From positions 1 to 32,545 of the forward strand of contig UYFQ01000390.1 of the NCBI GenBank assembly GCA_900617105.1: DNA of 32,545 bases. Direction: 5' to 3'. Of this stretch, positions 5,181 through 32,545 are shown piece by piece. The notes beneath the pieces were generated by a model. The model had not been told where the DNA came from, made no database searches, and saw only the letters and a list, made by a program, of their open reading frames with translations. Made by a program: the position numbers and the translations under genes. Position 1 is the stretch's first letter; each line of letters starts with the position of its first letter. This DNA is from Hydrurus foetidus (lineage: Eukaryota).

Positions 5181-5338
5181 TCGTTAGCCAGATCTGCTGA
5201 GCACATAATAATCTAGCTTAACTATTAAGCAAATTCTCGTTCTAAGTCAGATCTTGGACCCTACCCTTCCGGTATCAGTCCAACATTTGCTTAATAGTTA
5301 AGCTAGATTATTATGTGCTCAGCAGATCTGGCTAACGA
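5181..5338. repeat. Perfect 54-bp inverted repeat (5181-5234 / 5285-5338) with a 50-bp spacer; MITE-like or foldback
   Basis: The arms are exact reverse complements. No TSD is visible. Confidence 0.9.
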
Positions 5339-6635: not shown

Positions 6636-7098
6636 TTTTGAAATAATATTCATTGACCATAAATAGATATCTTTTTCGGTGTACACACTACTGTACACAC
6701 GCGCAGTGGTCAAGGCGTACTTACCACTCAGATGATAGATGATACTCATAGCTGTCTACTTCAGACTAGTGCATACTGGATATACGACGGCATAGTAAAT
6801 TCGTGTATACGACAGTTCAGGATGGATGTGGGCATAAAATCTGTAGTTCAGGCGCTTTTGAATGCTGATTAAACAGTGTAAGCGTCTACTGCTGCAAAAA
6901 TAATCACCCGTAAACAGCCGCAGGAGGGGAATATGACACCACCACCCCCTCTACCGGGGGTCCCCCCTCCCAGGGGACATCTTTTTATGGTCACTAGCGC
7001 CCCCCCCCCTCCCAGTATTCCACGTACGTTTTTTTTCGAAGATTTTTCTCAACGGGAAATAAAAAATAAATGCTGCCCAAAACCATGCCCAAAATAAC

Positions 7099-7978: not shown

Positions 7979-8341
7979 AAAATAACATCAAGTTTTGATC
8001 TTCACTGTAGTTAGTACTACAACGGGTGCAACAACAATTCTCGCTGAAAAGTGTCGCCCTCTGTATCTTTCCTCTTTTACGATGGCACGTCTTACTGTAC
8101 AACTCGTGAGGCACAAATTTGTCCGAAGAGGGAGCAGTCCATTTTTTTGCGACGTCATCCACTGCAGATTGAGTGACGAATATCCAATAGTCAATCAAGG
8201 GGTCTTACGCTGTCATCTCGAGAACAGTTTGAATTGCAAGGATTCACATCGAAAACTTTGCTCGCCAAGAGACTAAAGCGCCCCGATCCTCCTGTCGCCA
8301 ACCATCCCGACTGCCTGATTTCTGCTCCACCCGTAGCGACT

Positions 8342-10886
8342 ATGGCGGAAACCACCCCTGATGATGTCATCATCAAAGTTTCCATTAAATTTTTGCTGTC
8401 GAATGGCGTCACCGGATCCTTAATTGGCTCAGGAGGTTAGTTCCATTTCAGATTACGGCCTTCTCGATTAAATCACTCAATTGCACTTTAAACGAGGATG
8501 AAGTATTAGGAAAAAGGCCACGATGACCAAGTACTTCTCTTAACCATGCTACATATATCCGTTGCCTCGATTCTGCCCATGTATATCACAAGCGGATAAT
8601 GCAGTGACTTTTGCCTTCAATTCCTAAGAGTCTGTGAATCAGCTACTGGCTAACATTAATCAACGTCAATTTCAGGATCAGCGATAAAAGAACTAGCAAG
8701 TGTTACTGGAGCTAAAATCCACGTGTCTTCCTCAGACGAGGTTTATCCTGGCACAAACGACAGGTGATCTGGTATTTTTCGGTGCTGAAATGCTACCGCT
8801 CGATGTATCGTCTATGGTCGAAGAAACGAGACATAATAATCGCTGCAAACTGGCTAGAGGATGAATCTGTCAATGTTGGGAAGTGGATTTTGAACCGATA
8901 ATGTTGCAATAAAATGATGCCCTCCTGCGGTCGCTGCTCAGATAACTTTGAAATCCTTCGGACGTTACTTGTCGTTGAATCAAATCGCCTAACTTTGTGC
9001 CTAGACCGTAATCTCGACTAACTTCCTCTTTTTCATGTTTTAATGTCAATCCAATCTTTTCAGAGTTGTGTTAATTGTTGGCAGCGAGAGCGTTGTCTCG
9101 TTGACTCAGACAATCATATGGGAGCTGATAGCGCAACACTTAAGAACTGTCGAAGCGGTTTGTTCTTGTGACGACTCATGACTGTCTCCATCGCACCATT
9201 CTCTTTCCTACTTCATGCGTGACTCTTTATGACTGAATCTTTCCGTGAATATTGACTACTCTCAACCCAAATCGCTGTCAGGGTGAGCGCAGTGAAACGT
9301 GGAGTCCTAAAATCGCTATTGCATCTCCCTCTTTTGGTCGTGAGGTAAACGCAGATAGATTCGTGTTCTGGAAGCCAAGGCGAATTATACGGTTTTGAAT
9401 TCGTATCTTGAGAATTTACCGATCTTCCAAGTAATATTTAGGAAGACTGTGTGAACTATGTGACATGATAAACTTCTGAAGTTGTGAATAACTCAGCTGG
9501 AAATATTTGAATCAATTTCTGCTTACAACAAATGTCATTACCAACACTATTGCACGGTATGTACTAGTCCAGTGATCTAGAAGAGTAGCATACTAACTAC
9601 AACAAACTGTACATGACCATTTCTTTCTCTCAGGATGGTGCACATGTGAGTGCCCGAATATCCATTCCTGCAGCTGTGGGAGGATTAATTCTAGGTAATC
9701 CTGACGCTGTCATGTCTTGTGTTCTTGGAGTGGATCTATGCTGGCTATACTGACTTTCGGATTATGACGCATTACCACACAAATCTCAAAATAAATATTA
9801 AAAAACTGACAATCGTTTTTCTGTTTTCAGGAAGAGGTGGAGCAACAATACGGTTGCTCGCTGAAGAGAGTGGAGCGAAAATCAGCATGACTTCGAAGGA
9901 TGAAGCTGTATTCACGCAGGAGCGCATTTTATCTATTTCTGGCCCAAAATTTTGTTGTATACAGGGCTTAGCTATGGTACTCTCAAAACTTGCAGAAGAC
10001 AGTGAACTCAATCAATTTCTAAACAAAGGCACGAATTACATGACGAACATCAACACGTACGAGTACGCACGAGGCACCGCGTCTAAGAGGGGTGGCCCTG
10101 GCAGAGGTAGAGGAAGAGGGGAGGGGCCTACGGGGCGAGGTGGAAGAAGTATGAGTGGTGGTGGGAGCGATGATGCGCAGGATAGCGGCGCCTTCGATGA
10201 TATTTCCGCCAGCACCACTATATCCATGTCTGTGCCTGAGCTCTTGATAGGCAACCTGTTAGGAAAGAATGTGAGTACAGCTAATTTACTGCTGTTCTTT
10301 TTATTCTTGATTTTCTTCTCTTCTCTCTTCACCCCTACGTTTGTTAAGTGCCTCCACACTTCAAGTGACATATTTAATCCACTGTCATATATTACGGCGG
10401 TAGCGTGCGTGATAAGCAGATGTTCATTTGACAAAACTCACTTCACATAATTCTGACGGTTTATAGGGCACGACCATACGCGAAATCACTTGCCTGTCTG
10501 GTGCCAGAATCACGGTTTCCTCAAGGTAGACCGATTCTCGCAAGGCAAAATAATGACGTCATCTATCGATAAACCCGTTTAATCCAAAACAATGACGTCA
10601 TCTATCCAATTGTATGACCACATCTGATCTTTTTACGAAAACTTTCTTGTGCTGGTTACCCTTGTTTTTTAAGGGGTGAGTACATTGAGGGTACAACAAA
10701 CCGACTAGTGACGATTTCAGGAACACCTGACTGTGCCCAGACTGCGCATCACTTGATAAATCAAAAACTGCTACAAGTACGTACCTAAGTCATTTAATCT
10801 ATTTCGTTTGAAATGCATATTGATCTTCATAACTCTTTCATTCTTCATTGTAGCCTCCCCGATCGACACAATCAGGAATGAAATAA
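8342..10886 (+). CDS. Triple KH-domain RNA-binding protein (NOVA/BTR1-like), 9 exons, ~344 aa
   Basis: Exons 8342-8435, 8676-8763, 9064-9157, 9282-9344, 9634-9694, 9831-10270, 10467-10525, 10674-10776, 10854-10886; all introns GT-AG and frame-preserving. KH loops LIGSGGSAIK, LILGRGGATIR, LLGKNGTTIR; YPGTNDRVV and EGTTNRLVTISG motifs; RGG-rich linker. Confidence 0.9.
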
Positions 10887-11763: not shown

Positions 11764-13400
11764 TCACTGGGCGTGGTGCTTTCCAATAGCTGCTGCGGCT
11801 GCCTTAGCGGAACGTAGGCAGCCTTCGAAGTTGCTCTCAGTGAAAGCATCTCCCGTCACTACAACAATACCGCTGCTAACAATATCTTCAAAACGACCAT
11901 CATCTAGTTTTCTTTTGCCACTTCATGGCGGAATTATAAGTTGATGAAGGTAATACGGTTAAATTAGACGTATATTTCGGTAGTGAAGATGATTACAACA
12001 ATTACTAGCTTAATGAATTCGATCACAACAGACAGACACGTGATCAGGATTGTTGCATCCACTACCTTCTCGATGCGTCACTAGACAGTTCTGGCTGCTG
12101 CAGAATGTTGACTTCTCCTTCAAATCCGAAATTGCTGAGTCCTTTACTAATCTGTGAGTCTCTCCAATTGACGATGTGGTGACTATCTGGTTCTCCTATA
12201 AAACGATATAAAAGAAAGTTTTCATGCACAAAACTCACGTGCTTCGGTTGAATCTTAGTGACTCTGCATAATGTGACAGGTAATGAATAAATTGACAAAA
12301 CGTACCTAGGGAAGGAAAGATCATGTTCAAGCTCTTAAGAATCATCTCGTAGACTACTTTCTCGTCAGTGTCTTTGTGTTGAATACCAAATGGAACGCTG
12401 GTATGCACGAGTATAGATGGTCCTGATCCGCTGTGTCCCTCTGACACTGCGCTGACATCTCCCTCCCTAGTAATCTCAGTCTCAGATTTACTGGCTGGGA
12501 AATTCGATTTCCTATTCTCAATCGACACGTAGCGAATAATTTCGTCATCGAAAATGTATTTACCGCTCCACTTTACATTTTGTAAAGCTGACCAGGAGCT
12601 GAAATGGTAATAAAAGGCCACTGCAAATCTGTGGGTTTGATGACGAGAAAACAATCGTTTAGTTGCATGATGACAACTGCACTCGAAGAAAACCAATCAG
12701 GCAAAAGAATTATTTAAATAATCCAGAGGAAGTCAAATGCACGTGAAATTTACCTCGAAGAGTAGACGACGGAACTAAGCTGTTCTCTAAATTTTGTTCC
12801 GAACATTCCCACGATGTCACCCTCTAATGCTAGCAGCTGAGGAGTAGGAAGACTTAATACAATTGTGTCGAAAGACTCTTCCACTTTCGACCCCAATTTT
12901 GATCCCACTGCTGAGTAAACGTTGCTTTTTAATTCTTCGCAGTACTTCACTGTGATGGATTCCAAAGCTGTATCATAGCAAAATACGCTCGGGGGATCAG
13001 TCACTTGCCCTTTCGAAAGATAATCAACAACAGAGGAGAGCCCATTAGGAGCAATATAATGTGTCTTCAAAGCATGTTCTGGTCTCATTCCACTGATAAC
13101 GCTGTTATCGACCATCGGTGCAATAATGCCTGCATCATTAAGTAACGAGTAAATCAAACTCTCTGCTTCATCGGATGACCTCGTCAAATATTGAGCACCC
13201 ATATCGCAGTGAGATTCAGTGTGCTTCCCGTTCCGATCTGGGGCACTATCTAAATAATTCGTAATCATTCTGCCACCGAGGCTGCTGCTCTTTTCCCAGA
13301 CAGTATAAGATGGTCTCAGTGCAGGAAACATAGATGTGACATATCGATTGACAGCTGCTCCGGTAATTCCACATCCAACGACTAAAATTCTCGGTGACAT
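11764..13400 (-). CDS. RNLS: Renalase-like FAD-dependent oxidoreductase, 4 exons
   Basis: Exons 13400-12754, 12628-12306, 12195-12066, 11875 (or 11872, NAGNAG)-11764. Motifs: VVGCGITG, WEKS..LGGRM, DMGAQY, YSSRFA, HTSVPFG, WRDSQ, GDAFTESNFEGCLRSA. Confidence 0.88.
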
Positions 13401-13574
13401 TGGTCCCTCGAAGACAATTTCGGTTAATGAAATTCTATGAGAAGAAATTATTAAGGGAGTGACCTATGTTGGTTCGTTCAAACTAATCATCCTAAGTGGT
13501 CGAATGTCGGAAGAGAAGAAGTTTCAAGGTTCTGCATTACTTTCTGAAAAAGTGAAGAACGATGATTCAGTGAC

Positions 13575-13614
13575 TGTCAGTGTGTCACTGCTTCAGTTCC
13601 CCCGACCGTCGCCC
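13575..13614 (+). repeat. A2 5' LTR, first 40 bp
   Basis: Matches 25301-25340 and is interrupted by element B. Confidence 0.93.
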
Positions 13615-13979
13615 TGTCGGAATAACTATGAGTTAAGTAACCGTATAAGTTATTGCGTATGTACATTTGATGACGTTTCGTACGTCGTGTGCCGGGTGGA
13701 GGTCGCTACTCCACCGGTCCAGGTTCCTTTAACCCAGGAAGATCAAAAAGATGAAAGTACACCATGTTTGACTGTGCGGGACAGATCGAATTTGTCGACT
13801 GTCTCCATGAACGTTGTAAGCCATGTTGCATCGTTAATTACCTTAAATCTCACACCAGCAGAGCTTCGTCTTTGAGCCGGGACAAGTTGCTAGCGCACGT
13901 GTTGAAGTTGCAGAAGGAGCGCGTACCCAGGAAGGATTTAGTATTCCGTTAATCGGAAGTAGAGCCAGGAAATACGACA
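13615..13979 (+). repeat. B 5' LTR (365 bp)
   Basis: Direct repeat of 19518-19883 with TG...CA termini. Confidence 0.97.
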
Positions 13980-13990
13980 TAATTAACGAT
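13980..13990 (+). promoter_or_regulatory. B primer-binding-site position, complementary to its own LTR (candidate self-priming PBS)
   Basis: TAATTAACGAT is the reverse complement of ATCGTTAATTA at 13830-13840. No TGG start. Confidence 0.8.
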
Positions 13991-14015
13991 ACCTTTCAGT
14001 GCCAAAAGTTGCAAC

Positions 14016-15111
14016 ATGAAAGGCAAAGGCAGAGAAGCAAAACCTGCGGGTAGAGGCGGAAACCCTGCCAACGGGGGCAGAGGTCATGCCACCCAAGGAA
14101 AGGCTCCACCAAGGACAGGAACGGTAGCCGCGATTGGCGCATTCCTGGACCTTGGAAGAGAGATGAACCATGGTAGCGTAAGCACATGGATGAGAAAGTT
14201 CCGTGAGTATACACGGACAAATTACAAATCGGACATTAGCGAAATCTTTGGAAACGAGGGGATACCTGGGGAGTACCCGCAGTATATCGCCCCTGTGGAT
14301 ATAGCTCGCGATTCCGACTTTATGGTCCAAACGAAATGGAAGCGAGCACTCGAGCTCTTCGATAAAAACGTCATCACCTTGAGAGAAGACAGAAAACAAG
14401 TCTTCGGACTTATGCTGGGACAGATCAGCGAAGCTTCAAAAGCTACAATAAGAGAGACAGAAGCCGGATTAAATGCGATGACAGCGGAGGATCCGTTACT
14501 GTTACTGAGAGCTATCATATTGACTCACCTATCGGACCCGAGGCTGGGAGCAGACCAGAACCTGTTAAGAGTACGAATGGCGTACGAGACGGTTAAAATG
14601 GAACCCAACGACGTGTTGAAGTTCTACTATCAACGGTTCAAAGCGTTGAAAGCCGGGTACGAGGATACCATGCGTGCCTTGGGAGTCATGCCCGAATACA
14701 ACGAGGTCATGACCACCCACAACCACTTACTGACTTCAATCAAGTTCATGAATGGACTGAACTCTGGATACCGACATTACGTGGAATATTAGGCTAAAAG
14801 CCTGGCCGATCAACTTAGAGGAAGCTTACCTAGAGATGGCTAAGGTTACCCCGAAGAAACCGGCCGGAACCGCCCCCCCAAATCAAACGAACGTACTCGC
14901 AGTGAAAAACGCCGGCGGAGAGAAAACTGCTGCGACTGATAAGAAAGGGAAGTCTGACGGGGGTGATGGGAAGAAGGGTACCCGTCCGGGGTACGGTACC
15001 CGATCGGGCAAGTGTAATAAATGCAATCAACCGGGACACTACGGTTATGAGTGTACGGCCACGGATAGCCCAGCGGCTGCACCAGCAGCCAGTGGAAAAT
15101 CTTTAAACTAA
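14016..15111 (+). pseudogene. gag: B gag with one frameshift near 14790
   Basis: ORF 14016-14792 ends GYRHYVEY*. The continuation RLKAWPINLEEAYLEM...CNKCNQPGHYGYEC (CX2CX4HX4C) is in the +1 frame, ending at TAA 15109-15111. Confidence 0.85.
15102..15108 (+). other. Candidate -1 ribosomal frameshift heptamer T TTA AAC
   Basis: X XXY YYZ in the gag frame directly before the gag stop. The -1 frame is open from here into pol. Confidence 0.75.
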
Positions 15112-18100
15112 GTAAGTTACATCACTCCTCACCTGTACACTCACCCACACCCGCACCTGTACATACACCTGCACTTACATTTACACACACACCTACACAC
15201 ACACGTACCGATCCTCCATGTTTGGCTGATTCCACTAGCGGAATTGAAACATGTGATCATATTGTTTTTAGTGCCAATACATGCAATGTATATAACATGA
15301 TTAAGAGTAGACACATACTGCTTGACACATGTGCTGGTGAGTCGGTATTCAACGACTCATCCCTGCTATACAATGTCGAACACGCACCTACACCTATGAT
15401 TGTTAGCGGGGTGAATCCGAAAGGAAAACCGCTAATAATCAAGAAACGTGGGGTGTCGGCGTTCGGCAATGTTTATTATAGCCCTGACTGTGCTGGTAAT
15501 ATATTGTCTTTTGGTAACGCTGTACGTGACTGTACTGATGTTAAGTACTTACATGACTATGATTGTTACATAGTGCAAGATGTCATTGGCCAATATTTTT
15601 ATAGATTCTCGCGAGATGAGTCTACGAATATATACCAATGTGATCTTGACACTATGGTAACTGAGTGCATGCCAATATTAGTTACGACAGTAGAAGAGAA
15701 GAAGAAGAAGTATACAGTAAGAGAGGTCAGAGACGCGTCGTTAGCTAGAGACTATCAGCGTAGACTAGGATACGCTAGCGCAGCACAAACTATTAAGTTG
15801 ATATCCCAAGGGAATTTGACTAATTGTAAAGTGACTGCGCGAGACGTACATAGAGCAATCGATATATGGGGACCGGACGTGGGATCCCTAAAGGGGAAGA
15901 CCACTAGTCACCAGGCTAAGATAGAAGAGAAGTTGCCATTGATAGGAATAGAGTATAAGACCGAACAGATAATGTATATAGACTTAATGTTCGTGAACAG
16001 AGTACCTTACCTAGTCACAGTAGTGCAGCCTATTGAGTTCCTGTATGTAAGCAAGTTAGCTAATAAAGACCATAAGACAATTTGGAATAGCTTGAAGACT
16101 GCATTAGCCAGCATGGTAAAACACAAGTTCAGAGTTAAGATGATTCGAGTAGACGGTGAGGGTGCAATAAACACCGAATGGTTTCACAACAAAGTCGGTT
16201 TAAGAGGTATAGTATTAGACGTTACCGGAGCCGGGGAAGCCGTAGCCGTAGTAGAACGTAAGATCAGACATATCAAAGAGAGAGTCAGATCAGTCATAAA
16301 TTCGTTACCATTTCAGTTAGATGATAAGCTCGAAGTGTGGTTAGTTAAGTATGCAGTCAGTAGAATTGTATTAGCTCCCACACGTAACTCCACCAATCAT
16401 ATCAGCCCTAGAGAGAAATTGACAGGTAGAAAGATAGATATTGATAAGGAGATTAAACATGGATTTGGTGATTATGTACAAGTGCACAATGATGTAATTG
16501 ATAATTCCACCAAACCAAGAACTGCCGGGGCCATAGCACTTATGAGCTCCGGTAATCTAGAAGGTTCATGGTTTTATATGCTGTTAGCAAATGGGCAGAT
16601 AGTTAAGAGAACTAAAGCCACTATATTACCCATGCCTGATGAAGTCATACTGCATTTGAATAAACTTGCATCGACTAGAAAGACTGCCAATGTTAAACAA
16701 CCTGTATTCGAGAGTAGTCACACTGTATTCAATGATGATGATGATTTTGATGATGATGCTGAATATATTGGTGATATCGAATATGATATCATTGACGAAT
16801 CTGCTGTTGCAGAAGAAGTTGATGATAACATTGAAGATAACTTTGTTGACGATACTCCATATGTTGAACCACAACTTGACACATATGATGAAGATCACCC
16901 ACCCACATTAGATGAATATGTAGATGACACACTATATGTGACAGACACTACTGATGATGCTATTCAATATGATGCACATGAGTATACACCTAAGTATGAT
17001 CAAGCTTTAATAGATGATATATTTGGTGTTAGTGATGATGAAGATGATTTTAATGATGTATCTGTACACTCTGAAGTATTCACACCACCTGTTACAATAG
17101 AAACTGAACATGACTCACCTGACACTGATTCACCCGTGTTGCGTAGAAGTGGTAGAAATCACCAACTTGGCAAATGGAATAAGAAGTTTGTTGGTAGTAT
17201 GTTGTATAATCACACCCACCTATACAAAATGACTGTTAATGAAGGAATTACTAAGTTAGGGGTGGTAGCTGTTGATTCCATCACATCTGAACTAAAACAA
17301 ATGTGTGATAAGAATGTATGGGAAGGTGTAACTTATGAATCCCTTACCCCTAAACAAAAACGCACCATTATACCTAGTAGCATGTTTTTAAAAGAAAAGT
17401 ACACTGCTGATGGTATGTTTGAAAAACTGAAATCTAGACTAGTTGCCGGTGGGCACTTACAAGATAGAGATGTTTATAATAATGGCGCATCACCTACTGC
17501 TAGCACATCCAGTGTATTCATACTAACTGCAATTGCTGCTAGACAGAACCGTGCCGTTGCTACTGTTGATTTCCCCGGTGCATTTCTGAATAGTGATATG
17601 CCGCTGACCGGTGACCATGTTGTATACATGCGTTTAAATAAACAACTAACTGCTGCACTAATTAAAATTGATGCAACATATAACAATTATATTAATGACA
17701 ATGGAACATGTATTGTTAAACTTAAGAAAGCATTATATGGATGTGTAGAATCTGCTAAATTATGGTATGACAAACTATCCAGTGATTTGATTAAATTCAA
17801 TTATACTGCTAATGAATATGACATATGTGTGTTCAACCGAATTGAATCCGATAATACACAAACATCACTCGTAATTCATGTTGATGACATGATCATAACT
17901 GCTTCAACTGAATCTCGTGTTGATGATGTTATAAGACAAATTGAAACTATATATCCCGGTCTAACAAAACACAGAGGAAAAGTTTTAAATTACATAGGTA
18001 TGACATTTGACTTCAGCAAGGAAGGAAGTGTCAAGATGACCATGGAAGGCTTCGTGCATGATCTTATTGAGGGGTGCAAAGACATGCCCGGGACGGCAAC

Positions 18101-18956
18101 TACACCCGCACGACCTAACCTATTCACTGTACCTAACGAATCCGACTCACTCTTACCTGATAATCTGCGTGAGCGTTTTCATTCTATTACAGCCAAGCTG
18201 CTCTACCTGAGCAAGAGGACTAGGCCAGACATTCTGACGGCCGTAGCGTTCCTCACCAAGCGAGTGCTTAATCCCCAGAGGGATGACTATGACAAGCTGA
18301 CCCGTACGATACAGTACATACGGGGTAGTCAGCACATGGGTATAACATTTGAACTATATGAACCTATTCATGTTATTGCATATATCGATGCATCCTTTGC
18401 CATACACCCCGATATGAAAAGTCACACAGGCAGCGTAATCACCCTGGGAAAGGGAGCGATCTACGCCAAGAGCGGTACTCAGCGCCTGATGACAAAGTCC
18501 AGCACGGAGGCGGAGTTAGTCGCACTTAGCGACGCTGCCAACCAAGTGCTGTGGACTAGGAACTTCCTGGAACGCCAGGGACATCCCCAACCTCCCGCAT
18601 TAGTGTACCAAGACAATCAGTCTACGATACAGCTGATACGGAACGGACGTTCGAACAGCGAACGTACGCGGCACGTTGATATACGGTATTTTTTCTTGCA
18701 CGACAGGATTACCACTGGCGATGTGGACATCGTATACCTACCTACCACCGACATGATAGCAGACATACTCACTAAGCCACTCCAAGGGGAGTTATTCAAG
18801 AAGCTCAGGAAGGAGCTACTCAACATTATCCCATCTACCCTCACGTACGCAGAAGGCTGCAAGACCGAGGACCGTACGGGCCCAGCACTGGCACCCGTAC
18901 GCACGAGAACCAACCCACGGTTCCCGTATCCTACACCCCACACTCAAAGAAAATAA
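15102..18956 (+). CDS. pol: B pol polyprotein (PR-IN-RT-RH), uninterrupted
   Basis: Protease LLDTCA; integrase YIDL/RVDGE/VERKIR; RT KSRLVAGG, VDFPGAFL, LYG, HVDD; RNase H YIDASF, TEAEL, QDNQS, ADILTK. Acidic linker between IN and RT. Confidence 0.95.
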   Translation, partial: FKLSKLHHSSPVHSPTPAPVHTPALTFTHTPTHTRTDPPCLADSTSGIETCDHIVFSANTCNVYNMIKSRHILLDTCAGESVFNDSSLLYNVEHAPTPMIVSGVNPKGKPLIIKKRGVSAFGNVYYSPDCAGNILSFGNAVRDCTDVKYLHDYDCYIVQDVIGQYFYRFSRDESTNIYQCDLDTMVTECMPILVTTVEEKKKKYTVREVRDASLARDYQRRLGYASAAQTIKLISQGNLTNCKVTARDVHRAIDIWGPDVGSLKGKTTSHQAKIEEKLPLIGIEYKTEQIMYIDLMFVNRVPYLVTVVQPIEFLYVSKLANKDHKTIWNSLKTALASMVKHKFRVKMIRVDGEGAINTEWFHNKVGLRGIVLDVTGAGEAVAVVERKIRHIKERVRSVINSLPFQLDDKLEVWLVKYAVSRIVLAPTRNSTNHISPREKLTGRKIDIDKEIKHGFGDYVQVHNDVIDNSTKPRTAGAIALMSSGNLEGSWFYMLLANGQIVKRTKATILPMPDEVILHLNKLASTRKTANVKQPVFESSHTVFNDDDDFDDDAEYIGDIEYDIIDESAVAEEVDDNIEDNFVDDTPYVEPQLDTYDEDHPPTLDEYVDDTLYVTDTTDDAIQYDAHEYTPKYDQALIDDIFGVSDDEDDFNDVSVHSEVFTPPVTIETEHDSPDTDSPVLRRSGRNHQLGKWNKKFVGSMLYNHTHLYKMTVNEGITKLGVVAVDSITSELKQMCDKNVWEGVTYESLTPKQKRTIIPSSMFLKEKYTADGMFEKLKSRLVAGGHLQDRDVYNNGASPTASTSSVFILTAIAARQNRAVATVDFPGAFLNSDMPLTGDHVVYMRLNKQLTAALIKIDATYNNYINDNGTCIVKLKKALYGCVESAKLWYDKLSSDLIKFNYTANEYDICVFNRIESDNTQTSLVIHVDDMIITASTESRVDDVIRQIETIYPGLTKHRGKVLNYIGMTFDFSKEGSVKMTMEGFVHDLIEGCKDMPGTATTPARPNLFTVPNESDSLLPDNLRERFHSITAKLLYLSKRTRPDILTAVAFLTKRVLNPQRDDYDKLTRTIQYIRGSQHMGITFELYEPIHVIAYIDASFAIHPDMKSHTGSVITLGKGAIYAKSGTQRLMTKSSTEAELVALSDAANQVLWTRNFLERQGHPQPPALVYQDNQSTIQLIRNGRSNSERTRHVDIRYFFLHDRITTGDVDIVYLPTTDMIADILTKPLQGELFKKLRKELLNIIPSTLTYAEGCKTEDRTGPALAPVRTRTNPRFPYPTPHTQRK

Positions 18957-19517: not shown

Positions 19518-19883
19518 TGTCGGAATAACTAATGAGTTAAGTAACCGTATAAGTTATTGCGTATGTACATTTGATGACGTTTCGTACGTCGTGTGCCGTG
19601 TGGAGGTCGCTACTCCACCGGTCCAGGTTCCTTTAACCCAGGAAGATCAAAAAGATGAAAGTACACCATGTTTGACTGTGCGGGACAGATCGAATTTGTC
19701 GACTGTCTCCATGAACGTTGTAAGCCATGTTGCATCGTTAATTACCTTAAATCTCACACCAGCAGAGCTTCGTCTTTGAGCCGGGACAAGTTGCTAGCGC
19801 ACGTGTTGAAGTTGCAGAAGGAGCGCGTACCCAGGAAGGATTTAGTATTCCGTTAATCGGAAGTAGAGCCAGGAAATACGACA
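19518..19883 (+). repeat. B 3' LTR (366 bp), preceded by a short PPT-like ATAGGGGTG
   Basis: Direct repeat of 13615-13979. Confidence 0.97.
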
Positions 19884-19888
19884 CGCCC

Positions 19889-20115
19889 CCCCCCCCCTCT
19901 TTTCACAACCGCATACATCGACATTTTCATGCACATTCCGTTCGCTCATTTCACTACACGTTAGATGTCTTCCTGTAATTCAATCTCAATGTATCTCAAC
20001 TTCTCTCGATCTATTCACTCAATACCATTCTGCTCACACAATATAAAGCAGTAATCTTTTAAACAATTCTGTTTCTACCGCATCGTCTTACCGACTTCCG
20101 GCCGATTCACTGACA
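19889..20115 (+). repeat. A2 5' LTR, remainder
   Basis: Matches ~25341-25568 and ends CACTGACA. Confidence 0.95.
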
Positions 20116-20129
20116 ATTGTTTAAAAGAT
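20116..20129 (+). promoter_or_regulatory. A2 primer-binding-site position, complementary to its own LTR (candidate self-priming PBS)
   Basis: ATTGTTTAAAAGAT is the reverse complement of ATCTTTTAAACAAT at 20054-20067. The gag ATG follows immediately. Confidence 0.85.
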
Positions 20130-21353
20130 ATGCTTCCTGCTACAGTCCATCCTAGCGCCCCAGCCGCAACAATTCTCGACATTGTCTCAGATAATTGGGC
20201 ACAGTTTAACAAGGCTTTCACCTTGTCTTGCTACACAAAATTTGGAGTCGCGGGTCAGCAAATTCTTTCAAACAAAGAAATCCCACTTACTCCATTCGCT
20301 GTCGCCCCAACCAAATTGGATTTGGATACTAATCTCGCTGGGAGACCAATACCCGGTCAATACACGTATGCTAGACGCACCACAACAGCAGCTGAAGCTG
20401 CACTCCCGGAATTCGACCTCGCAACAATCTCTTTAACTGAATCAGCTAATCGTGAATATCGCGAGGATCTAAAACTCTACACCGCAGCTGCCCGTATCTT
20501 TGCCCTAGAGGACACTGAGTGCCTCGATCATTTACATCGACACATTTCATTACCTTCTCACACGTCAATCAAAACCCATCCGCTCTACACAGCGTACCAA
20601 CTTCTCCCTATAGGCAAACGCAGCTATGCCTTTTATAAAATGGCAAGGGACATACACTCCATCGGCAACGCAACAACCAAATTACACCGTACTCGTCTGT
20701 ACGTCAATATGTCGCAGATCGATCTCACTCACGAACAATATATGGAACAAATCTGCTCTATGGCTGAAACCTTCAACATTGACTTCGAATCTCCAACCTA
20801 CCCCGGCTACGTTCGCCTAAACGAATTTCACAGCTTCATCTATCTCGCAGGCCTAGATCGCACACAATTTCGAAGAGTCATCGATGAAACTCTCCAGACC
20901 AATCCAACTGGTCGCTTTCCAGACCATATCGCCCTCATGGCCCAAATACAAACTTGGAAAGTAGCCAACGCCTTATCTTTTACAAGGGAGGCTATCTCTA
21001 CTCAGGGGTCAGCTCTTATCGCTAAACCATCCCCTTCAACAAAATCAAACAAAAAGGAGCCTACTCAACGTCCACACCTACATCCTTCACCCTGCACATG
21101 GTGCCTATCCGCTGACAAAGTCTCACGGTATGGCCACTTATCATCTCACTGTTCTAAAAACCCCAACCGACTCCCTGGCCCTAGTCCTGCTCCTGTCCCA
21201 CCAACTCCTCGCCCTCCCTCAAACACATCTACTCGTCTCCATGCACTACTAAGCCAGCTCGACACTGCCACCACGCCAAACGATACTAATGCTGCCATGC
21301 TTCTAATTGCTGAAGCAGCTATTGAAGCGTCCGACTATCCCGACAGCGCCTGA
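20130..21353 (+). CDS. gag: A2 gag, 407 aa
   Basis: Located right after the LTR/PBS; similar to A1 gag; C-X2-C-X10-H-X4-C knuckle. Confidence 0.88.
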   Translation: MLPATVHPSAPAATILDIVSDNWAQFNKAFTLSCYTKFGVAGQQILSNKEIPLTPFAVAPTKLDLDTNLAGRPIPGQYTYARRTTTAAEAALPEFDLATISLTESANREYREDLKLYTAAARIFALEDTECLDHLHRHISLPSHTSIKTHPLYTAYQLLPIGKRSYAFYKMARDIHSIGNATTKLHRTRLYVNMSQIDLTHEQYMEQICSMAETFNIDFESPTYPGYVRLNEFHSFIYLAGLDRTQFRRVIDETLQTNPTGRFPDHIALMAQIQTWKVANALSFTREAISTQGSALIAKPSPSTKSNKKEPTQRPHLHPSPCTWCLSADKVSRYGHLSSHCSKNPNRLPGPSPAPVPPTPRPPSNTSTRLHALLSQLDTATTPNDTNAAMLLIAEAAIEASDYPDSA

Positions 21354-24300
21354 CTACCTGTAGTCAACAGCCACACTCTATCCAACATCACACTCGCTTC
21401 ACCTGACCCTCTTGCTCTAACCGCCGACTATGCTCCTACAAATTGCCCATACTCCACCCTTGCTATCCCTTACCCAAGTTCTTTAGCCCTTTCTTCACAA
21501 AGGACTGTCATTATTCCTTCCATCCTCGCACCAACTTACTGGGATAACGCATGCTCATTCCACACAGTCAACGACCTGACCCTGCTATACAATACTTCAA
21601 CCCTACATGCTCCATTCTCTCTGGGTGGCGTCGGTGGAACCTGTCTAGTCACTCATCGTGGTTACCTTCACTGCCTACCCCACAACAACAATATGAACGT
21701 TGCCTACTACGCTCCAACTATACCAGTCAACTTGTTCAGTCTAGGACACCTTCAGCGATGTGGAGCTAGCTACGGCCCAGACCCACTTCGACCCCTCACA
21801 CATGTCTCCGTCTATTCATCAATCTCTGGCCCCCTACTAGCCCATGCTACACTCTCACCAAATAACCTCCTTCTCGTCGACTTCAATGCTCTTAAAATGG
21901 CATCAATCCTGTCCCCCCTACGATACCATCCCTCCTACGCACTAAATGCTACATTCCCAATCCAACATATCAACGCTGAACAGCACGCTCGGGCTGATGC
22001 TGCTGAGCAGCTGCACATCGACCTTTGCCATCCATCGGACAGGAGTCTCTGCTCGAATCTCTCTACTGGCAAACTACCATTCACTACACTAACATGTACT
22101 GACATCACCCTCAACCGTCAACTCCGCGGCCCTTGCCCCCATTGCGCCGCTGGTAAGCACACCAACCCACCACACCCTCCATCAACAAGCCCTCCCGCTA
22201 CATCCATTGGTGAGGTCATCTCAATCGACCCACAGCTCCTTCCAGAACCTTCACCGGGACAACACACACACGAAATAATCCTCGTGGATGAGTTCACCGG
22301 CCACCTCTCTGTCGTTGGTGCCACATCAAAATCAACCCCGGCTGTATTCAAAGCACTACAACACATCATATCCACCACCTTCAACGCAAACCAACACCGC
22401 GTCGGTACAATCCACGGCGATTGCGAAAAGATCAATATCTCTCTCGCTGGCCCCCTTGGCTCGCTCGGCATCAATCTCCATACATCCCCTCCTGGAGAAC
22501 ATGCCGCGCGAGTCGAACGCTATATTCTTATCCTCCGCCAACTGTCCATCGCAATACTCTCAGCACTATCCTACATCCTCCCCTCCAAATATACCCTGTA
22601 TCTCCACAAAGCCATCGCATCGGTCCGAAACTCACTCATCAATTCTCGCAGCTCCCCCTCTACACCCGACGAACTCCTACGAGGTACCAAACCATCCCGT
22701 CGCCAATTCCCCTTCGGAGCCTGTTGCATGGTAACCCAGCACTACGACAAACGTGTTGCCCTTGCCCGTGCACATCAGTCCTCACCTGCCGTCGAAGCTA
22801 AGGCCGAAATCGGTGTCTGTATGGGCCATGATCATATCACTGGCCGAACCCTCTTTCTCCTCGCTAATGGTGCTATCGTACCTCGACGTCCCACATCGCA
22901 ACTACCATCCTCCTATGTCCCATTTAATTGGACCCCTAAAACCTTCGTGATCACCACACCCATTCCCTCTCCAACACAAGACCTCGCATCACCTCTACCC
23001 GCACCTCCCCTCAACTGTGTCGTCCAATTGCCACACGTCCCCCACTCCGACGCTATCGCCACAGTAACCGGTCATATCCCCTCCCCCCTCAACAGCGATC
23101 TTCTCTCCTACATCCGCCAACCACCCTCATTGATCCCTACCTCAACGACAACCCATCCCGGAGAATACACACTTCAAACCTTGATAACTCCATCTACCCC
23201 ACCTCAATCACCTACCACCATTGCCACGGCTATACCCAACGCGGCACCTACAGACCCATCCACTCCTCCAGCCGTGATCGACAACATCACTCATAGCTCA
23301 ATGCTATCCCCACTACCTACACCACCCACCACGCCTACACACATCTCTACACCGGCGCCGCGTCCTTCACGCAATACAGCACACCCACCCAACTTCTGGA
23401 AAGGTGCTTGCGTCAGCTCAGCCCCAAATACCGTACCCCCCAATAATGAACGCATGTCAGCCATCAAAAGAAAACTCTTCCTTTCTCAACAAGCAGCAAT
23501 CCGCAATAGGAACCACCGCCTCCAAAACCCAACACCATACAATAACCGAACCACCAACATTCTGCCTGAGCCTCTCCCCACACGCCGCGCAGAGATGTCG
23601 ATTCGTAAGGCCTCGAACCTATACAACGCCGCCGACATTTCCGCGGGCATCTCCAAGGAACTTTGCAAACACTTCACAACTTACAAATCACTAACACTCC
23701 TACCAAGACACGCCATCGAACCAAATGCAGTATTCATGCGAAGTCAAATCTTCATTTAAAAAAAATCCAATGGTCTCATTACAGCCAGGCTCGCTATTGA
23801 CGGCAGTACACAACCCCGCAAAACCTACAATGACACTTACGCAGGCACTTCTGATACAACAAACCGCGCATTTCTCCTTCAAGCATACATAGCAGATGCC
23901 ACACATCGTGGGTGCCTCGACCAATTACGCATAGGAGATTTTGACTTTCCCGGTGCCTTCCTTCATAATAAATTAACACGCGAAATGACCAATGGTCATC
24001 AGCTCATAGCCAAACTCCCATCGGATCTCCCCAGCCCACTCGCCGGACAACTTGCCGAAATTACCGGGTGCTGCTACGGGATCAAGCAGGCTAATCACGA
24101 GTATGATAAGGATCTAATCAACCTTCTTACCAACGCTGGCTTCATACCTACTGCCTCTGACCCACACTCTTTCCACAAACGCTGCTCTAACAACCCTTCA
24201 GATTCCTTGACCCTAAACATGCATGTTGATGATGGGTGGTACGTTACGTGCTCCGTCCCGCTCCTTGCCGAACTTAAGGCCGTTCTCACAATGCGCTACG

Positions 24301-25199
24301 GCCCCATCGACTTTCACGATGCCTCTAACGGCGTCTGCGGCGTCCGACTTACACGCCACCACGACCACTCTTGCACCCTAGATCAAGGTCCTCATATCAC
24401 CAAATTCCTCCACCGCGCGGGAATGGACCTGGTCCCACCAGCTCTCACACCATCCACGGCCACATTCTTCGACCCCCCCACCGACCTAACACCAGTTGAT
24501 AAAACCCGATTTCTCAGCGTGAATGGCAACCTTGTATTCCTCCTGCCCATACGCCATGATATACGCAAGGAAGTCATCCATCTATGCTCACGCAACTCCA
24601 ACCCTGTGCAGTCCGATCTTACCAAGCAGATACACGTCCTTCGCTATCTCAAAAGCTGTCCTGATCTTGGCCCCACATTCTCCACTAATCCCTCCGCTTA
24701 TCCCAACGGAGTCACAATCACAGCTGCTGCTGATTCCTCCCACGCATGCCATGCCGACGGCCGCAGCCACTCAGCTTATATCATCCGCATTGGACTCAAC
24801 ACCGCACCTTTCGTTACGCACTCAGCATCTGAAACCTCTGCTATTGCACTAAGCCCCTGTGAAGCAGAGTATCTCGCCCTCGGTCGGTGTGCTCAGCATG
24901 TCCTATACTTCAGACAATTCGCGGCCGACATTGGCTTCCCCCAAACCGCACCCACTGTTATCTTTGAAGATAACCAACCCGCTATCAATCTAACAGTCGC
25001 CCCTGGAATCACCCGCAAATCCAGGCACATCGCACTCAAAGAACACTATATTCGCTGGCTCTTCCAATCTAAACAAATCGCACCACAATTTGTGGGAACA
25101 AACGACATGCTCGCTGACGGCCTCACTAAAAGTCTCGCTCCATCAAAGTTCCTCTGGTTTCGCAAGGAACTATTCAATTCACATAATTTACAGAAATAG
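21354..25199 (+). pseudogene. pol: A2 pol, in frame with gag after a TGA; single nonsense TAA at 23757-23759
   Basis: Protease YWDNACS; integrase HIDLCH...CPHC plus IDP/HGD/VERY; RT TARLAIDG, DFPGAFL, YGIKQA, HVDD; RNase H DSSHA, CEAEY, EDNQ, ADGLTK. The TAA replaces the Lys seen in A1 (FIKRKS). Confidence 0.93.
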
Positions 25200-25300
25200 C
25201 CTGCTTCTTTCTATTTTCTATTCAAATACTTTAATCTTTTTTTTTCCTACATCTACACATATCCTCTCCATAATTCGCATATATATAGCTTACCGGCGCA

Positions 25301-25568
25301 TGTCAGTGTATCACTGCTTCAGTTCCCCCGACCGTCGCCTCCCCCCCCCCTCTTTTCACAACCGCATACATCGACATTTTCATGCACATTCCGTTCGCTC
25401 ATTTCACTACACGTTAGATGTCTTCCTGTAATTCAATCTCAATGTATCTCAACTTCTCTCGATCTATTCACTCGATACCATTCTGCTCACACAATATAAA
25501 GCAGTAATCTTTTAAACAATTCTGTTTCTACCGCATCGTCTTACCGACTTCCGGCCGATTCACTGACA
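25301..25568 (+). repeat. A2 3' LTR (268 bp)
   Basis: About 4 differences from the reconstructed 5' LTR; 8-bp terminal inverted repeat. Confidence 0.96.
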
Positions 25569-26147
25569 GTGACTGTTCCTGCTACGGCTACGTACGTGTG
25601 GTGCTACGTACGTGTAGTACTGTACGTGTGTAAATTACCCGTGTGTGTATTACAGCCATAGAATAAAATGGCACCCATTTACGGACATACTAAATCAATA
25701 GGAGATATATTTTGAAATTGAAAAAAATACTTTATCGTGTGTAGAAATAATGTAACGTGTAAATTTCTACCATAAGGATTATATGGTCAAATATGTGTAA
25801 TTTCTATTATTTAAATAGAAACTTGACTATAAATGACTCCATCAGACTTTATAAATAGATTTTTGTACTAATATCTGGACATCCGTTTCACATCTACCAA
25901 ATTAAAGGAATACCTACCCACAGTGTACACTGTTCAGTAAATAACGAGAATCGTACTAAAATCGAGTCCATGCACTTTAAACTGCAATCGATGACTTCAT
26001 TAGCGAAACCGATACCTTAAATCTGTAATTGAAACTGCTAATCATTGAGCGTCTACTACAACATTATACGTATCGACAGTCAATTCTTGCATGTCTCTCC
26101 GTTCATCGAGTCGCATTTAGTGCTTGTCTGTATTCTACAATCGAGCA

Positions 26148-28250
26148 ATGGAGAATTTCGGAAATCGAGGAAGAGGCAATGGTTTACCGTGGACGTTTCT
26201 ACGATCATTCAGCGAAGGTGATCAAAGTGGTGATTCTGCTTATTGACTTTTGATGCACTTATCTTTCTCATTATCGATTCCAGATCCTGAAGTAGCACCT
26301 TTCCTCCTTGATTTGGGGGTTAAAGTTGGCAGAGTCACCAATAGCAGAATCTCGACGACCTCTTACTATCACTGCAAGGTGGGAGGTTGCAAGAAGCAGT
26401 ACAGAGTCATCAAGTTAGTCGACGACGAAGACGTTGACAATCTCTATGTGGAGGAGGTAGCAAATGAATTCTATGATCACGCTGTAGCAGACGTTAATAT
26501 CAGAGGATTGTCACCGCGACAGAAGGAAATAGTCCTTCAATGCCACATGAGGAGGCAAAGTGCTCCCAAACGTGTCGTCGATGAATTCGATCGTCAAGCT
26601 GCAATCCTACTGACAGCAAACCTACCGGTTGTTCCAACTCCAACAACGGATATGATATCGAGCTTTCTATCTCATCATCGGAAGCTTCAAAGAGCTGGCA
26701 TCCCTGTTGGCAAGACAAGTCTCCAGGATTTGGAAAAGTCCTCACAAGATAATAGGATAGATAATAAGAATGATTAGAAAGTCAAAATAATCTTTACAAG
26801 CTAACACAACATAAACTTAAACTCAGTTGTAAATCAGGGTCTCGATGTAGCTGCTGTTTTGGACTACGAGCATGATGATGGAGTGAAGGGACCCTACTTC
26901 TCCATTTTATTTTGTTACTTGATCGATGGTACCCATTTTACACGTCCCATCGAAATAGACGACACCTACAAGCTGATTCATGAAGTATACACAGTTACTG
27001 TGTTGGGCCAGACTGATGCGGATCGTGTATTTCACACAAGAGCCGTTGGGATATCAACGAATAGTAGCGAGAGAGACCGAGTGCCACTATTCACGCCTCG
27101 TGCATACTTGGGCGATTCCGCAAAAGCCTATGCCAAGGCTGCACTGAGCATCTTTCCCTCTATTGCTGTCCGATTAATGTGCTTCGCTCACGTTTACAAA
27201 GGAAGTCTGGCAAGTGAAGTCAACTCACTACTTGGTGATCTACCGTTCATTAAAGTACTATAGGAATATAGTCTGAATTGATTATGATTATATGTTTACA
27301 ACTTGTAGAAAGTGGAGAAGCAGGATTAGGCCGTCAGAGGGAAGTTTCTCCATGATATAAATGCGATATCCCTGTCGTTCACCTCGGAGCAAGTCTTACT
27401 CGCAGTGGAAGGCAAATGAGAACGCTACAGTTCTCAATGTCACGGCTCATTTCAGAGCACAGTGGACTAACAATCATGTTAGTAACTGGACGAGAGGGTA
27501 CTGTCCCAATTGCGTCATCAACAATAATGGACTCGAGGCAACCAATGGAGTCATCAAGGATGAGGTGACACAGAGAAGGCTTTTGTCTGTACTGACTTTT
27601 TTGTACAAATATCGAGGTGGCTTACGTCCCAGTCTACTAGGAGGGATCCAGCAAATTCAAATTCCATTCCATTTACCGGCGTCCATACTATCGCAACAAG
27701 TAACTGGACTGAGGCATACAGATGGTCTAGGGACACTGCGCGACAACTCCGTATCACGAATGATGGGGTGTATGTAGCCGTCAATGGCGACGTTAGGGGC
27801 GATCTGACAGATGAAAAAGCGGCCAACTTTGTGGCTATGTTTACTAATGTCACATTCGGATCCTTCGATGACTTCACTAAGACATCAAATAACGTCTGTG
27901 TCATCAAACCGGATCTTACTAGGCAAGAGGGATACAATTGTACTTGTAAAGTTAATGCCAAAGAAGACAGCTGCAATCACTCCCTCGGTGTCGCCATTGT
28001 CCGAGGCGCTCTTGTTCCTCCCAGAGAAGCAAAGGTCACCCTCCTCGGACGTAAGAGAAAAAGAGAGAGAAAGCCACTAGCTGCTCCTGCCTGGCAGCAT
28101 CAACCTTTCGACATCGTTTCTCCCCAGTATCATCCTGAGCAAAATCCTGATATTCTTGCAGGTGTAGTTGCCCCACCAAATGAGCCCCTGAATGCTCAAA
28201 ATGCAATACTAGAAGAGCATGTTGAAGTACCTAATGCCATTGAACAGTGA
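26148..28250 (+). pseudogene. Mutator/MULE-type DDE transposase with a SWIM zinc finger, fragmented by introns and/or frameshifts
   Basis: Motifs EIDDTYKL, YLGDSAKA...MCFAHV (CxxH), NNGLEATNGVIK and YNCTCK...CNH lie in successive frames. TIRs were not found. Confidence 0.82.
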
Positions 28251-29969: not shown

Positions 29970-32545
29970 TAGGGCTGGTGTCCGACTCCAAAAGTGAAGT
30001 CGGACCGGACAGTCGGACATCCACTGAAATGTCGGACGGACAGTCCGACATTCTCGGACAAATTGAGATAATCGGAGTCGGACGGAAGTCGGACAAAAGT
30101 CGGACGGAAGAGGTACGGAAGTCGGACAGATAACGTTTGGAAGTCGGACAGACGGACACTTTTTTTAATTTCTCTCTCGCATTCCTCAGCCAGCGGCCAA
30201 CTGTCGTGCAGGACTATCAGATCGGAAGCATGCTGTGGCTGAATAGAGGTGCGACAGAGAAAACGCGCTCGGAAGGTGCAGAAGTGGCAGGTATGCAGAG
30301 GATTCTACGAGCTAAAATGGCAGTGTGCATGATTGGCAGGCCTTTCATGGCTTTGTAACAATCAAGTTCGAGGGAAACGGTAATGTCGATTTCGTCATCG
30401 GCAACAGCGCTCTCGTCATCATCTCCGATACCTTCGAAGAGAGCTGTCAGTGGCCTCGCGACATCCTTTGAAGGTGCAACAACGGCATCTAAATTTGCAA
30501 ATTGGGCTTTTCTGGTTCTTATTTCGTCGGTGATTTTGCGCATCAAGGACTTAATCTGATCCCAGATTTTAATTCTGTCCAGGACTCCAATGTACTTCAA
30601 AGACTTTGAGCGGGGATCCAAGGCTGCGGCCAACAAGCTCGTTCGTGGGAATCCTTTTTGTCTGTTTGATCTGCCAGGTACCTCGTTTTCATCATACAGA
30701 GTATTCACTTCACCCTTGCCCCAGTAAGTGTTTAGTCCCTTAATCTTGTGATTCAGCATTTCATTTGCGAGTGTCCTCACGACGTCTGAGCGAGCGTTCT
30801 CACATTTGTCCTCCAACTTTTGTCTGACAACAGTGATGAGGTATGGGGCGAAGGGAAGAGTCGCGTACTTCTGACCCTCCAGGAACTGTTGGATCAGCAT
30901 GAAAGGTTCGAGCAACTCCTCTATATCCTCCAGCATGCTCCACTCAGTTCCAGTTAGATTCAACTCATCCTCGATAACTCCCTCAATAACTAATAATCCA
31001 AAGTATAATTTCAACTCTCGCAATCGCTTCACAAACTTCCATGTCGACCACCACCTTGTAGGACAGTCGTTGACGACTTTCTTCGGCTTCGTGTTGCTTC
31101 CGCGAGTCTGAATTGCTGCTAAGGACTCACTAGCTTGTACACTTGATTTGAAATGTCCTACGAGAGCTCGTGCACGTCTCATGAGATCCGGCGACGGTGA
31201 AGGCCAGCCCCTGCAAAAATCGGACCAACGACCGTGAGTGTACGACGCTACTGCTTGACGATCTAGGCTTTAACCTTCACACAGATGGTGTAAAAATGTT
31301 AAAAAACACTCACCGTAGTCAGCTCCATAACGTGATTTACATAGTAGTGGTGGGGGACTCCGTTGGGCAGCTGTTTACCAAAAGCACCCATTACTGGCGC
31401 TGTATCTGTCACTACGCAGACCATATTACGGATATCCAAATCAAATGCTGTCCATGCATTGGTGAGCTCCCTGATAATGTCACCAGCTTTCGAACCACCA
31501 GCATGTTCTTCACAGCCCAGTGTAAACGACCTCATCTGCCACGTGTCACTAATGTAGTGACATGTCACTCCTAGATAGTTAGTGCCAGCCAGAGATGTCC
31601 AGTGATCACAAGTCAGTGCGAAGTGTTTTTCCATCATCTCCGACTTCAATGTAGTTCTGACTCTACTCGCTTGTTCGCCTATGACACTGACGACCTTGTG
31701 GCGATCAAAGAATTGGACCTTTGGGTTCAATTCAGAACACATCCTCCTGAAGTGTTTGTTTTCGCATGTGTTGATAGGTTGGTAGGTGAACACGATCCAC
31801 TTTAAGAAGCTTTGGGAGAAATTGCCTCCATATGTAACATAATCCGCTATTTTTTCTCCCCTCTTGACTGATGCATCCGCTGCGGTAGCGTTCCGTGTTT
31901 GAATAATTTGTTGATGTCACTTCTCAATATGACGAGACAAAGTCGTTGTGCACGAATCCTAAAAAGATTATAATTGATTAATTGATTAAGGGATGCAATT
32001 TGAAGAGTACCGACGTTGCGTAATTTGTACCTTGTATTCAACAGTGAAATTGATGCTTTTGTCACTCTCAGCAGCTAGACGGCAAATGTTACATGACACC
32101 ACACCTTTCTTGTCAGGATGCGTCAAAATATTGAATTTGTGGAAGTGATCCCACACCCAAGAAGTTGACTTCGATGGAATCAATGTGATAACTGAAGAAT
32201 CAACACGGGTCGATGGCGCATTTATTCCATAAAAGTTGTGTCTATTATCTCTAACAGTTGTAGTCTGCTTTCTTGCTTTCTTGCTTTCTTGTTGTCCGGC
32301 TTTTTGGTCGATGTGCTAAAGGACGAATTTGAGATAGATGATGTTGATGAGCAACTGCCATACTGAAGTGCCAGCGCCCGATTTTCGGCAGTTATAGAGT
32401 TCTCTTCTTCGTAATCTTCCCAGTCATCTGCACTCCTTTTTCTACTCGGTAGAGAGTTGTCTGTAACTGCACTAGCCATCTCTGCTGCGAAACTGCGGTT
32501 CCGAATTGTGATAGCGTCGTCAGAACTTATTCAAAGGTCCTAAGA
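29970..32545 (-). mobile_element. hAT DNA transposon (3' end at 29970; 5' end outside the window)
   Basis: Terminus TAGGGCTGGTGTCCG is followed by an array of TCGGAC/GTCCGA subterminal motifs (29980-30160), next to a hAT transposase. Confidence 0.85.
30217..32479 (-). pseudogene. hAT transposase, probably defective
   Basis: BED finger SWVWDHF...CNIC; TCDHWTS; VTDTA; TRWWST; LDPR; LCIPATSAPSERVFS. CxxH reads YVNH, the frame slips after the putative intron 31313-31211, and the dimerisation domain looks internally deleted. Confidence 0.87.

Follow-up and report, generated by a model that had tools for sequence, protein, structure and literature searches.

Directly after its 5' LTR, the Ty1/copia element A2 carries a PBS complementary to a site within that LTR, and we propose that minus-strand synthesis in the A2 family is primed, in the manner of Tf1, by the 5' terminus of the element's RNA rather than by a tRNA (estimated probability about 0.78). 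For a second copia group, the B clade, Tf1-like self-priming is predicted with higher confidence than for the A2 family. The self-priming reading, put forward for A2 in the initial annotation of the window (the whole 32,545-nt stretch of DNA analysed), is supported by covariation across many families and by an initiator-like motif at the edge of the predicted duplex. LTR elements are typically characterised by priming from a tRNA; the experimental demonstration of self-priming was made with Tf1, an element of the gypsy type. In our view the RNA duplex is real and selected, with Tf1-like self-priming as its most likely function. The strong evidence comes mostly from the B clade, an RT clade separate from that of A2, and support from the A clade is thinner.

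Structure and setting of element A2

The window consists of eukaryotic DNA with introns and many mobile elements. Public runs that contain the LTR-gag stretch of A2 are mostly freshwater, biofilm and sediment metagenomes. The 5' LTR of A2 is interrupted by a second element, B, and the parts of A2 are arranged as follows:

13575-13614, plus strand: A2 5' LTR, part 1; its 3' end is one copy of B's target-site duplication, CGCCC
19884-20115, plus strand: A2 5' LTR, part 2
20130-21353, plus strand: A2 gag, 407 aa, ending in TGA and then CTA, in frame with pol
21354-25199, plus strand: A2 pol, in the copia order protease, integrase (HHCC), RT (HVDD), RNase H
25295-25300, plus strand: GGCGCA before the 3' LTR, with the GG-N-G-Y-R pattern of the B-clade plus-strand priming site
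25301-25568, plus strand: A2 3' LTR, followed by GTGAC

The 3' LTR is 268 nt long, with TG..CA ends and an 8-nt terminal inverted repeat, and the target-site duplication GTGAC is found at 13570-13574 and 25569-25573. Since the 5' and 3' LTRs are only two substitutions and one indel apart, A2 is young. This copy is nonetheless probably disabled, because its pol holds an in-frame TAA (23757-23759) and B sits in its upstream LTR.

A TG..CA LTR pair with a 5-bp target-site duplication, the PR-INT-RT-RH order read from the translation, an HHCC motif and an RVT_2-type RT mark A2 as Ty1/copia. Its Pfam matches fall below cutoff (RVT_2, E 0.004); A1, a decayed A-clade copy in the same window, scores 1.6e-8, and many homologs match PF07727. 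The domain order is that of copia, without integrase after RT-RH, and places A2 outside the Tf1/sushi group. A PDB search gave no match. No polypurine tract precedes the 3' LTR; GGCGCA follows a pyrimidine-rich stretch (25260-25300) and stands in the same register as GGAGTG or GGGGTG in the B clade. The TGA and CTA at the end of gag (21351-21356) form what we take to be a leaky-stop context. A1 has an in-frame TAG at the matching gag/pol junction (1774-1779). Gag-Pol of A2 and A1 is likely made by read-through.

The A2 PBS is complementary to its own LTR

The features around the junction between the 5' LTR and gag are:

20042-20047, plus strand: TATAAA, possibly a TATA box or a piece of a poly(A) signal
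20046-20054, plus strand: putative transcription start range of A2, with 20053 or 20054 as the best guess and 20050 or about 20047 as alternatives
20054-20067, plus strand: predicted self-primer of A2, the putative transcript 5' end; its core, 20056-20067, remains complementary to the PBS in a sister subfamily
20068-20115, plus strand: 48-nt loop between the predicted self-primer and the PBS
20116-20129, plus strand: A2 PBS, adjoining the terminal CA of the LTR

As the initial annotation had described, the 14 nt of the PBS are the exact reverse complement of 20054-20067, they contain no TGG, the gag ATG follows directly at 20130, and a TATAAA is present upstream. The match grows to 15 nt if the last LTR base, A20115, pairs with T20068, and the self-primer site is present in both LTRs. 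Among 20,000 dinucleotide shuffles of the A2 LTR, with start offsets of 0-5, none gave a match of 14 nt or more (best 12). The fold of 20054-20140 has a z of -4.5, with 0/200 shuffles equally good, and the mean pair probability of the duplex is 0.98 in modelled transcripts starting at 20050, 20053 or 20054.

The tract is rich in A+T and inverted repeats occur elsewhere in the window, which would suit an explanation of the match by chance, by local inversion or by an assembly artefact. Beyond the shuffles and the presence of the site in both LTRs, contigs of two other runs (X2 and X11), which may come from the same source DNA, cover 20025/20027-20140 near-identically, and the same layout recurs in B, in the A-clade locus L002 and in 45 other loci. 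We consider this explanation, to which we gave hardly any credence, refuted by the recurrence and the covariation described below.

The sequence at the edge of the duplex is GTA, with GCA three bases earlier, and not YCA, from which we infer a start of transcription at 20053-20054. A start at 20046-20050 is possible, because in the fold the stem, which ends at the gag ATG, can extend over it. If the TATAAA were a TATA box with the usual spacing, transcription would start after 20067, against self-priming; at the corresponding position of the alignment, L002 lacks this motif. ARAGORN detected no tRNAs in the window, and no Rfam families were found there, so that at the gathering score the LTRs match no known ribozyme.

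Element B has the same layout

The element nested in the A2 LTR is a second example of a self-complementary PBS, one missing from the initial annotation:

13615-13979, plus strand: B 5' LTR, 365 nt
13830-13840, plus strand: predicted self-primer of B, 11 nt, whose first base is the A of a GCA
13980-13990, plus strand: B PBS, the exact reverse complement of 13830-13840
15069-18956, plus strand: B pol, an open frame of 1295 aa (RVT_2, E 2e-21)
19518-19883, plus strand: B 3' LTR, which matches the 5' LTR at 364 of 365 aligned bases, with 1 gap, and is preceded by GGGGTG

B is flanked by the target-site duplication CGCCC. Like that of A2, its self-complementary segment (11 nt) lacks TGG, and a match of this length arose in 15 of 20,000 shuffles. 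The predicted duplex depends on the length of RNA folded: it is part of the MFE structure of 13828-14020, and its pair probability is 0.01 for 13830-14060. The gag region of B (13983-15111) is split over two frames upstream of the pol frame.

Survey of the B clade

A search for RT-RH relatives of B returned 1,957 at E <= 0.001 among 7,992 scored candidates. In the metagenome scan, 572 of 605 candidate B-clade stretches were confirmed and 79 loci were kept. Two tests were applied in which the LTR end was set independently of the hairpin, one anchored on a gag-like ATG and the other on the LTR start (PPT) and terminal repeat. With the gag-ATG anchor, 21 of 46 scorable loci reached p <= 0.01, the misses including wrong ATG calls and 3' LTRs. 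With the second anchor, for which a strict purine-tract rule had failed at most loci and was replaced by the GG-N-G-Y-R rule derived from the same loci, 15 of 19 scorable RH-LTR-gag-pol contigs reached p <= 0.01; two more had no detected LTR start. With the LTR end set by eye, duplexes of 9-16 nt emerge in all four misses and in both unscored contigs.

On the 3' side, 10 of 39 scored loci passed, one of them an artefact, and 18 more were unscorable. Many of the misses appear to be 3' LTRs next to host DNA and so to provide a natural control: judged by eye, the match is absent from 3' LTR copies of the same families, which host DNA follows (L059 against L062, L106 against L068). L044 and L080 seem to cover the junction, yet show no convincing duplex, and L078 gives an ambiguous reading.

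Several individual calls were revised. The 33-35-nt match on the 3' side of L064 is an inverted-repeat artefact and was left out, the 21 nt of L056 came from an inexact closure and were replaced by the 15 nt on the contig, and the automatic site of L051 (7 nt) was wrong, a better site pairing at 15 of 16 positions. L093 (3850-4140), whose LTR ends may be CG..CG instead of TG..CA, has an 11-nt self-complementary PBS and was left out of the count. L037 (1-13858) is a head-to-tail B-clade array with a period of about 5.65 kb in which single LTRs are shared, and many further loci are assembled as circles with a single LTR; such structures could reflect tandem copies, true circles or a collapsed assembly.

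Covariation and an initiator-like motif at hand-set junctions

Forty-nine junctions were set by hand, 46 from 45 metagenome loci together with A2, B and L002. They were drawn from positives, as were the 11 rows aligned for covariation, and near-copies are included (L096/L104, L054a/b, L067/L069). All 49 were scored at the offset set by the first base after the LTR, the base opposite which a self-primer has to end. The duplex has a median of 14 pairs (range 7-19, mostly 14-15 nt) and encloses a loop of 39-213 nt. The base 3' of the LTR site is T in 31 of the 49 and could pair with the last A of the LTR. The 49 junctions have 47 distinct first 9-mers, 81% of the paired bases are A+T, and TGG occurs at a single junction (L002), a combination that a fixed tRNA set does not easily give.

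Compensatory change between the PBS and the LTR site, which the initial annotation had proposed as a check, is present in the B clade, where both partners have changed at 12 of the 14 pairs of the 11-family alignment of positives. RNAalifold, with no structure supplied, recovered exactly the 14 site-PBS pairs from this alignment. Of its cells, 96% pair, against 59% when shuffled and 40-55% when the partner is slid. At the level of sequence, the alignment shows pairing that is kept while the letters change, and not how frequent pairing is.

The 5' edge of the duplex is marked by YCA. With the A within -3 to +2, the motif occurs at 38 of the 49 junctions against a background of 19% (binomial p 2e-18), and at 34 of 43 after six rows are dropped; in 35 of 49 the A lies at -1 or 0. 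In 19 of the 38, the A is located 15 nt from the primer 3' end. The YCA resembles stramenopile initiators, described as YCAYTYY in oomycetes (PMC3599244) and as an initiator-like TCAHW in diatoms, with +1 at the base after the A (PMC4686930). From the initiator position, a primer of 14-15 nt is predicted.

Covariation demonstrates pairing and not priming, and the stem could be real and selected as a structure, for example as an R/U5-leader hairpin acting in packaging, dimerisation or translational control of the gag ATG, with another primer in use, a scheme suggested for the Conserved Hairpin Site in fungal GalEa copia. The A2 stem, as noted, reaches the gag ATG and may even include it, and the palindrome ACAATTGT (20113-20120) spans the LTR end of A2, as CHSeq1 does in fungal GalEa elements (PMC5445492). 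A structural stem would, however, have no need to start immediately behind the LTR or at a motif resembling an initiator, as this one does in different families and with loops of 39-213 nt. In GalEa the partner is situated downstream of the LTR, and the authors report finding no LTR complement (PMC5445492); in our elements no alternative primer site is visible. The placement of YCA at the duplex edge, being independent of complementarity, is the strongest indication that the stem acts in priming and is not only structural, and we regard the purely structural role as unlikely, though the strongest competitor of self-priming.

The A clade

A2 Gag has 65 homologs, with identities of 42-98%. Searches with A-clade Gag detected no loci in metagenome or viral contigs and two in genome contigs, on eukaryote-type DNA inside a bacterial bin. 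This bin (G001) has both A- and B-clade eukaryotic retrotransposon contigs (L001, L002, L115-L119), likely as contamination; the 16-nt LTR motif described below located no second LTR in it. No A- or B-clade pol was found in viral contigs.

Besides A2, the junction evidence in the A clade comes from one distant locus, L002, whose Gag is 59% identical. Its duplex comprises 8 contiguous pairs, and compensatory change is seen here as well: two of the eight pairs differ from A2 on both sides, pair 5 from A-U to C-G and pair 8 from U-A to A-U. L002 also keeps a 16-nt LTR motif adjoining the site; this motif had 31 viral matches, none of them LTR-like. A TCA lies about 21 nt before the primer end of L002, and no YCA is present at its duplex edge.

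In a sister subfamily (about 83% identical), only the last two PBS bases differ among the changes listed, leaving a 12-nt core. In four further runs, the 4 listed variant positions of close A2 copies, a small set that leaves contig ends aside, all fall in the loop. Run X8 suggests a subfamily with one A fewer in the PBS.

The PBS of L002 begins with AT, a 2-nt spacer, followed by TGG at +3. It therefore has the look of a tRNA PBS, and with self-pairing of only 8 bp it raises the question of whether the A clade, as distinct from B, takes the end of a host tRNA or a half-tRNA as its primer, the LTR complement serving to mask or regulate the PBS. CTTTTAA in the reverse complement of the A2 PBS presumably resembles the tRNA-Lys anticodon loop, which we counted in favour of this possibility; by inspection, the sequence flanking it could not form an anticodon stem. 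Copia half-tRNA PBSs without TGG are known from Bianca, Osser, Bryco and FunCo1 (PMC6317226, PMC5445492). Against tRNA priming, A2 itself has no TGG, and the differences between A2 and L002 at PBS positions 5 and 8 are matched by changes in their LTR sites. We judge it improbable, more so than a structural stem, and prefer self-priming for the A clade as well.

Predicted course of self-priming in A2

In Tf1, the PBS is complementary to the transcript 5' end; the duplex takes in the first 11 bases, and RNase H makes its cut between bases 11 and 12 (PMC7175516, PMC4600332). In the A2 family, the transcript would begin near 20053-20054 (range 20046-20054), and its initial 14-15 nt would pair with the PBS across the 48-nt loop. 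By analogy with Tf1, the RT/RNase H would cut between 20067 and 20068, and the 3'-OH so released would be extended by RT, with A20115 as the first template base, into a strong-stop DNA of about 48 nt, which would then jump to the 3' copy of R. The cut after 20067 and the length of the strong-stop DNA are predicted from the duplex geometry, and we infer every step after pairing by analogy.

Phylogenetic position

RT-RH trees of 121 and 39 rows were obtained by quick searches; they are unrooted, carry SH-aLRT support only and hold no named TAR, CoDi or GalEa rows. The A group forms one side of a branch with SH-aLRT 100 in both trees, and the B group does so with 96 in the 121-row and 100 in the 39-row tree. 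In the latter, 12 of 13 canonical copia proteins, including named plant and fungal matches, form a third group (SH-aLRT 100), from which the A and B clades each stand apart (SH-aLRT 100). The A-clade sequences have a skewed composition, flagged by the tree program, and a long stem. Judged from a tree without TAR rows, the A and B clades are likely independent of this plant lineage.

With only slightly more confidence than even odds, we favour the broader view that at least two deep copia lineages of aquatic microbial eukaryotes normally self-prime without a tRNA, namely the C-rich A clade with its degenerate PPT and the large B clade, both unrelated to plant TAR. If this is true, copia RT/RNase H would have gained Tf1-like cleavage of an RNA duplex several times, or kept it from a self-priming LTR-element ancestor.

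Comparison with known systems

A PBS complementary to an LTR site is shared by A2 and B with Tf1 and Tf2 of Schizosaccharomyces pombe, with Tj1 and with the Tf1/sushi group of Ty3/gypsy. Unlike Tf1, A2 and B are Ty1/copia (integrase before RT, RVT_2), the loops span 39-213 nt and the system is known here from sequence. The duplex is mostly 14-15 nt compared with 11 bases in Tf1, and no second conserved stem comparable to the Tf1 U5-IR is seen in the B-clade consensus fold.

The novelty implied by the initial annotation was too high, for self-priming has already been predicted in copia: in the plant lineage TAR, 89% of 203 elements were assigned to it with blastn, on the basis of at least 10 complementary nt whose start lies 0-5 nt beyond the 5' LTR (PMC6317226). 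The same source cites Capy 2005 for the TAR elements Houba and Osr-1. A2 and B resemble TAR as copia elements predicted to self-prime by an identical criterion; TAR elements are from plants and mostly have one ORF, whereas gag and pol of A2 are separated by a stop. A literature search with subscription journals outside its scope returned no report of self-priming in non-plant copia. The mechanism, known in gypsy elements and predicted in TAR, would here be extended by covariation and initiator evidence to two copia lineages of microbial eukaryotes.

A similar proposal for the diatom CoDi elements, mentioned in the initial annotation, could not be traced. The main text of PMC2806351 contains no match to 'self-prim', 'Tf1' or 'tRNA', and no discussion of a PBS or of self-priming was found in the main texts of PMC2806351 and PMC2774666. 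CoDi elements are described as copia of about 5-8 kb with TG..CA LTRs, terminal repeats of up to 8 nt and two ORFs (PMC2806351), and they are placed in branch 1 in PMC2774666. A2 is like them in its TG..CA LTRs, 8-nt terminal repeat and two ORFs. No named CoDi or GalEa element occurs among the close matches; by resemblance, we presume that the B clade may be CoDi-like.

Fungal GalEa elements, from Copia branch 1, are reported to have no tRNA PBS, a Conserved Hairpin Site, a palindrome across the LTR end and a variable PPT (PMC5445492). A2 resembles them in a PBS without TGG, in the palindrome and in its degenerate PPT. The GalEa hairpin has a partner of conserved sequence 12-41 nt downstream, whereas in A2 and B the partner lies upstream, in the LTR, and its sequence is free to change.

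A large and diverse copia clade with a covarying duplex at an initiator would offer natural variants for the study of self-primer cutting of an RNA duplex by RT/RNase H. It also bears on whether hairpin priming preceded tRNA priming, as proposed in PMC3601003. LTR finders that require a tRNA PBS would miss or downgrade such elements, and the elements themselves would be expected to escape silencing by tRNA fragments.

Other features of the window

A1 (685-5200) is a decayed A-clade copia with stops and a frameshift; its RT-RH is 58% identical to A2's closest relative, and no A2-like LTR was found beside it. A perfect 54-nt inverted repeat with a 50-nt spacer (5181-5338) lies where the RNase H of A1 breaks off. 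The A-clade coding strands (1001-5000 and 20001-25000) are strongly C-rich and G-poor, with a GC skew of -0.3 to -0.56, unlike B, in which the skew is about 0 to +0.1.

An ATTTTG microsatellite of about 525 nt occupies 5-530, and directly after it stands a 74-nt fragment (532-605) that is 88% identical to B's LTR. Inverted repeats with C-rich ends, recognised by eye at 5465-5500 and 6965-7010, were noted around a GGCC-rich inverted-repeat element (7080-7980); the repeats and the element they enclose are possibly nested MITEs. Two genes were recognised, a KH-domain gene with introns (8340-10760, plus strand) and a flavin amine-oxidase-like gene (12235-13463, minus strand), and about 110 nt separate the open frame of the latter from the nested A2/B insertion. 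Decayed DNA transposons at 26247-28250 and 30217-31916 include a match to a hAT dimerisation domain on the minus strand, and one of those in this region, which has no Pfam match, we take to be a MULE/SWIM-like remnant.
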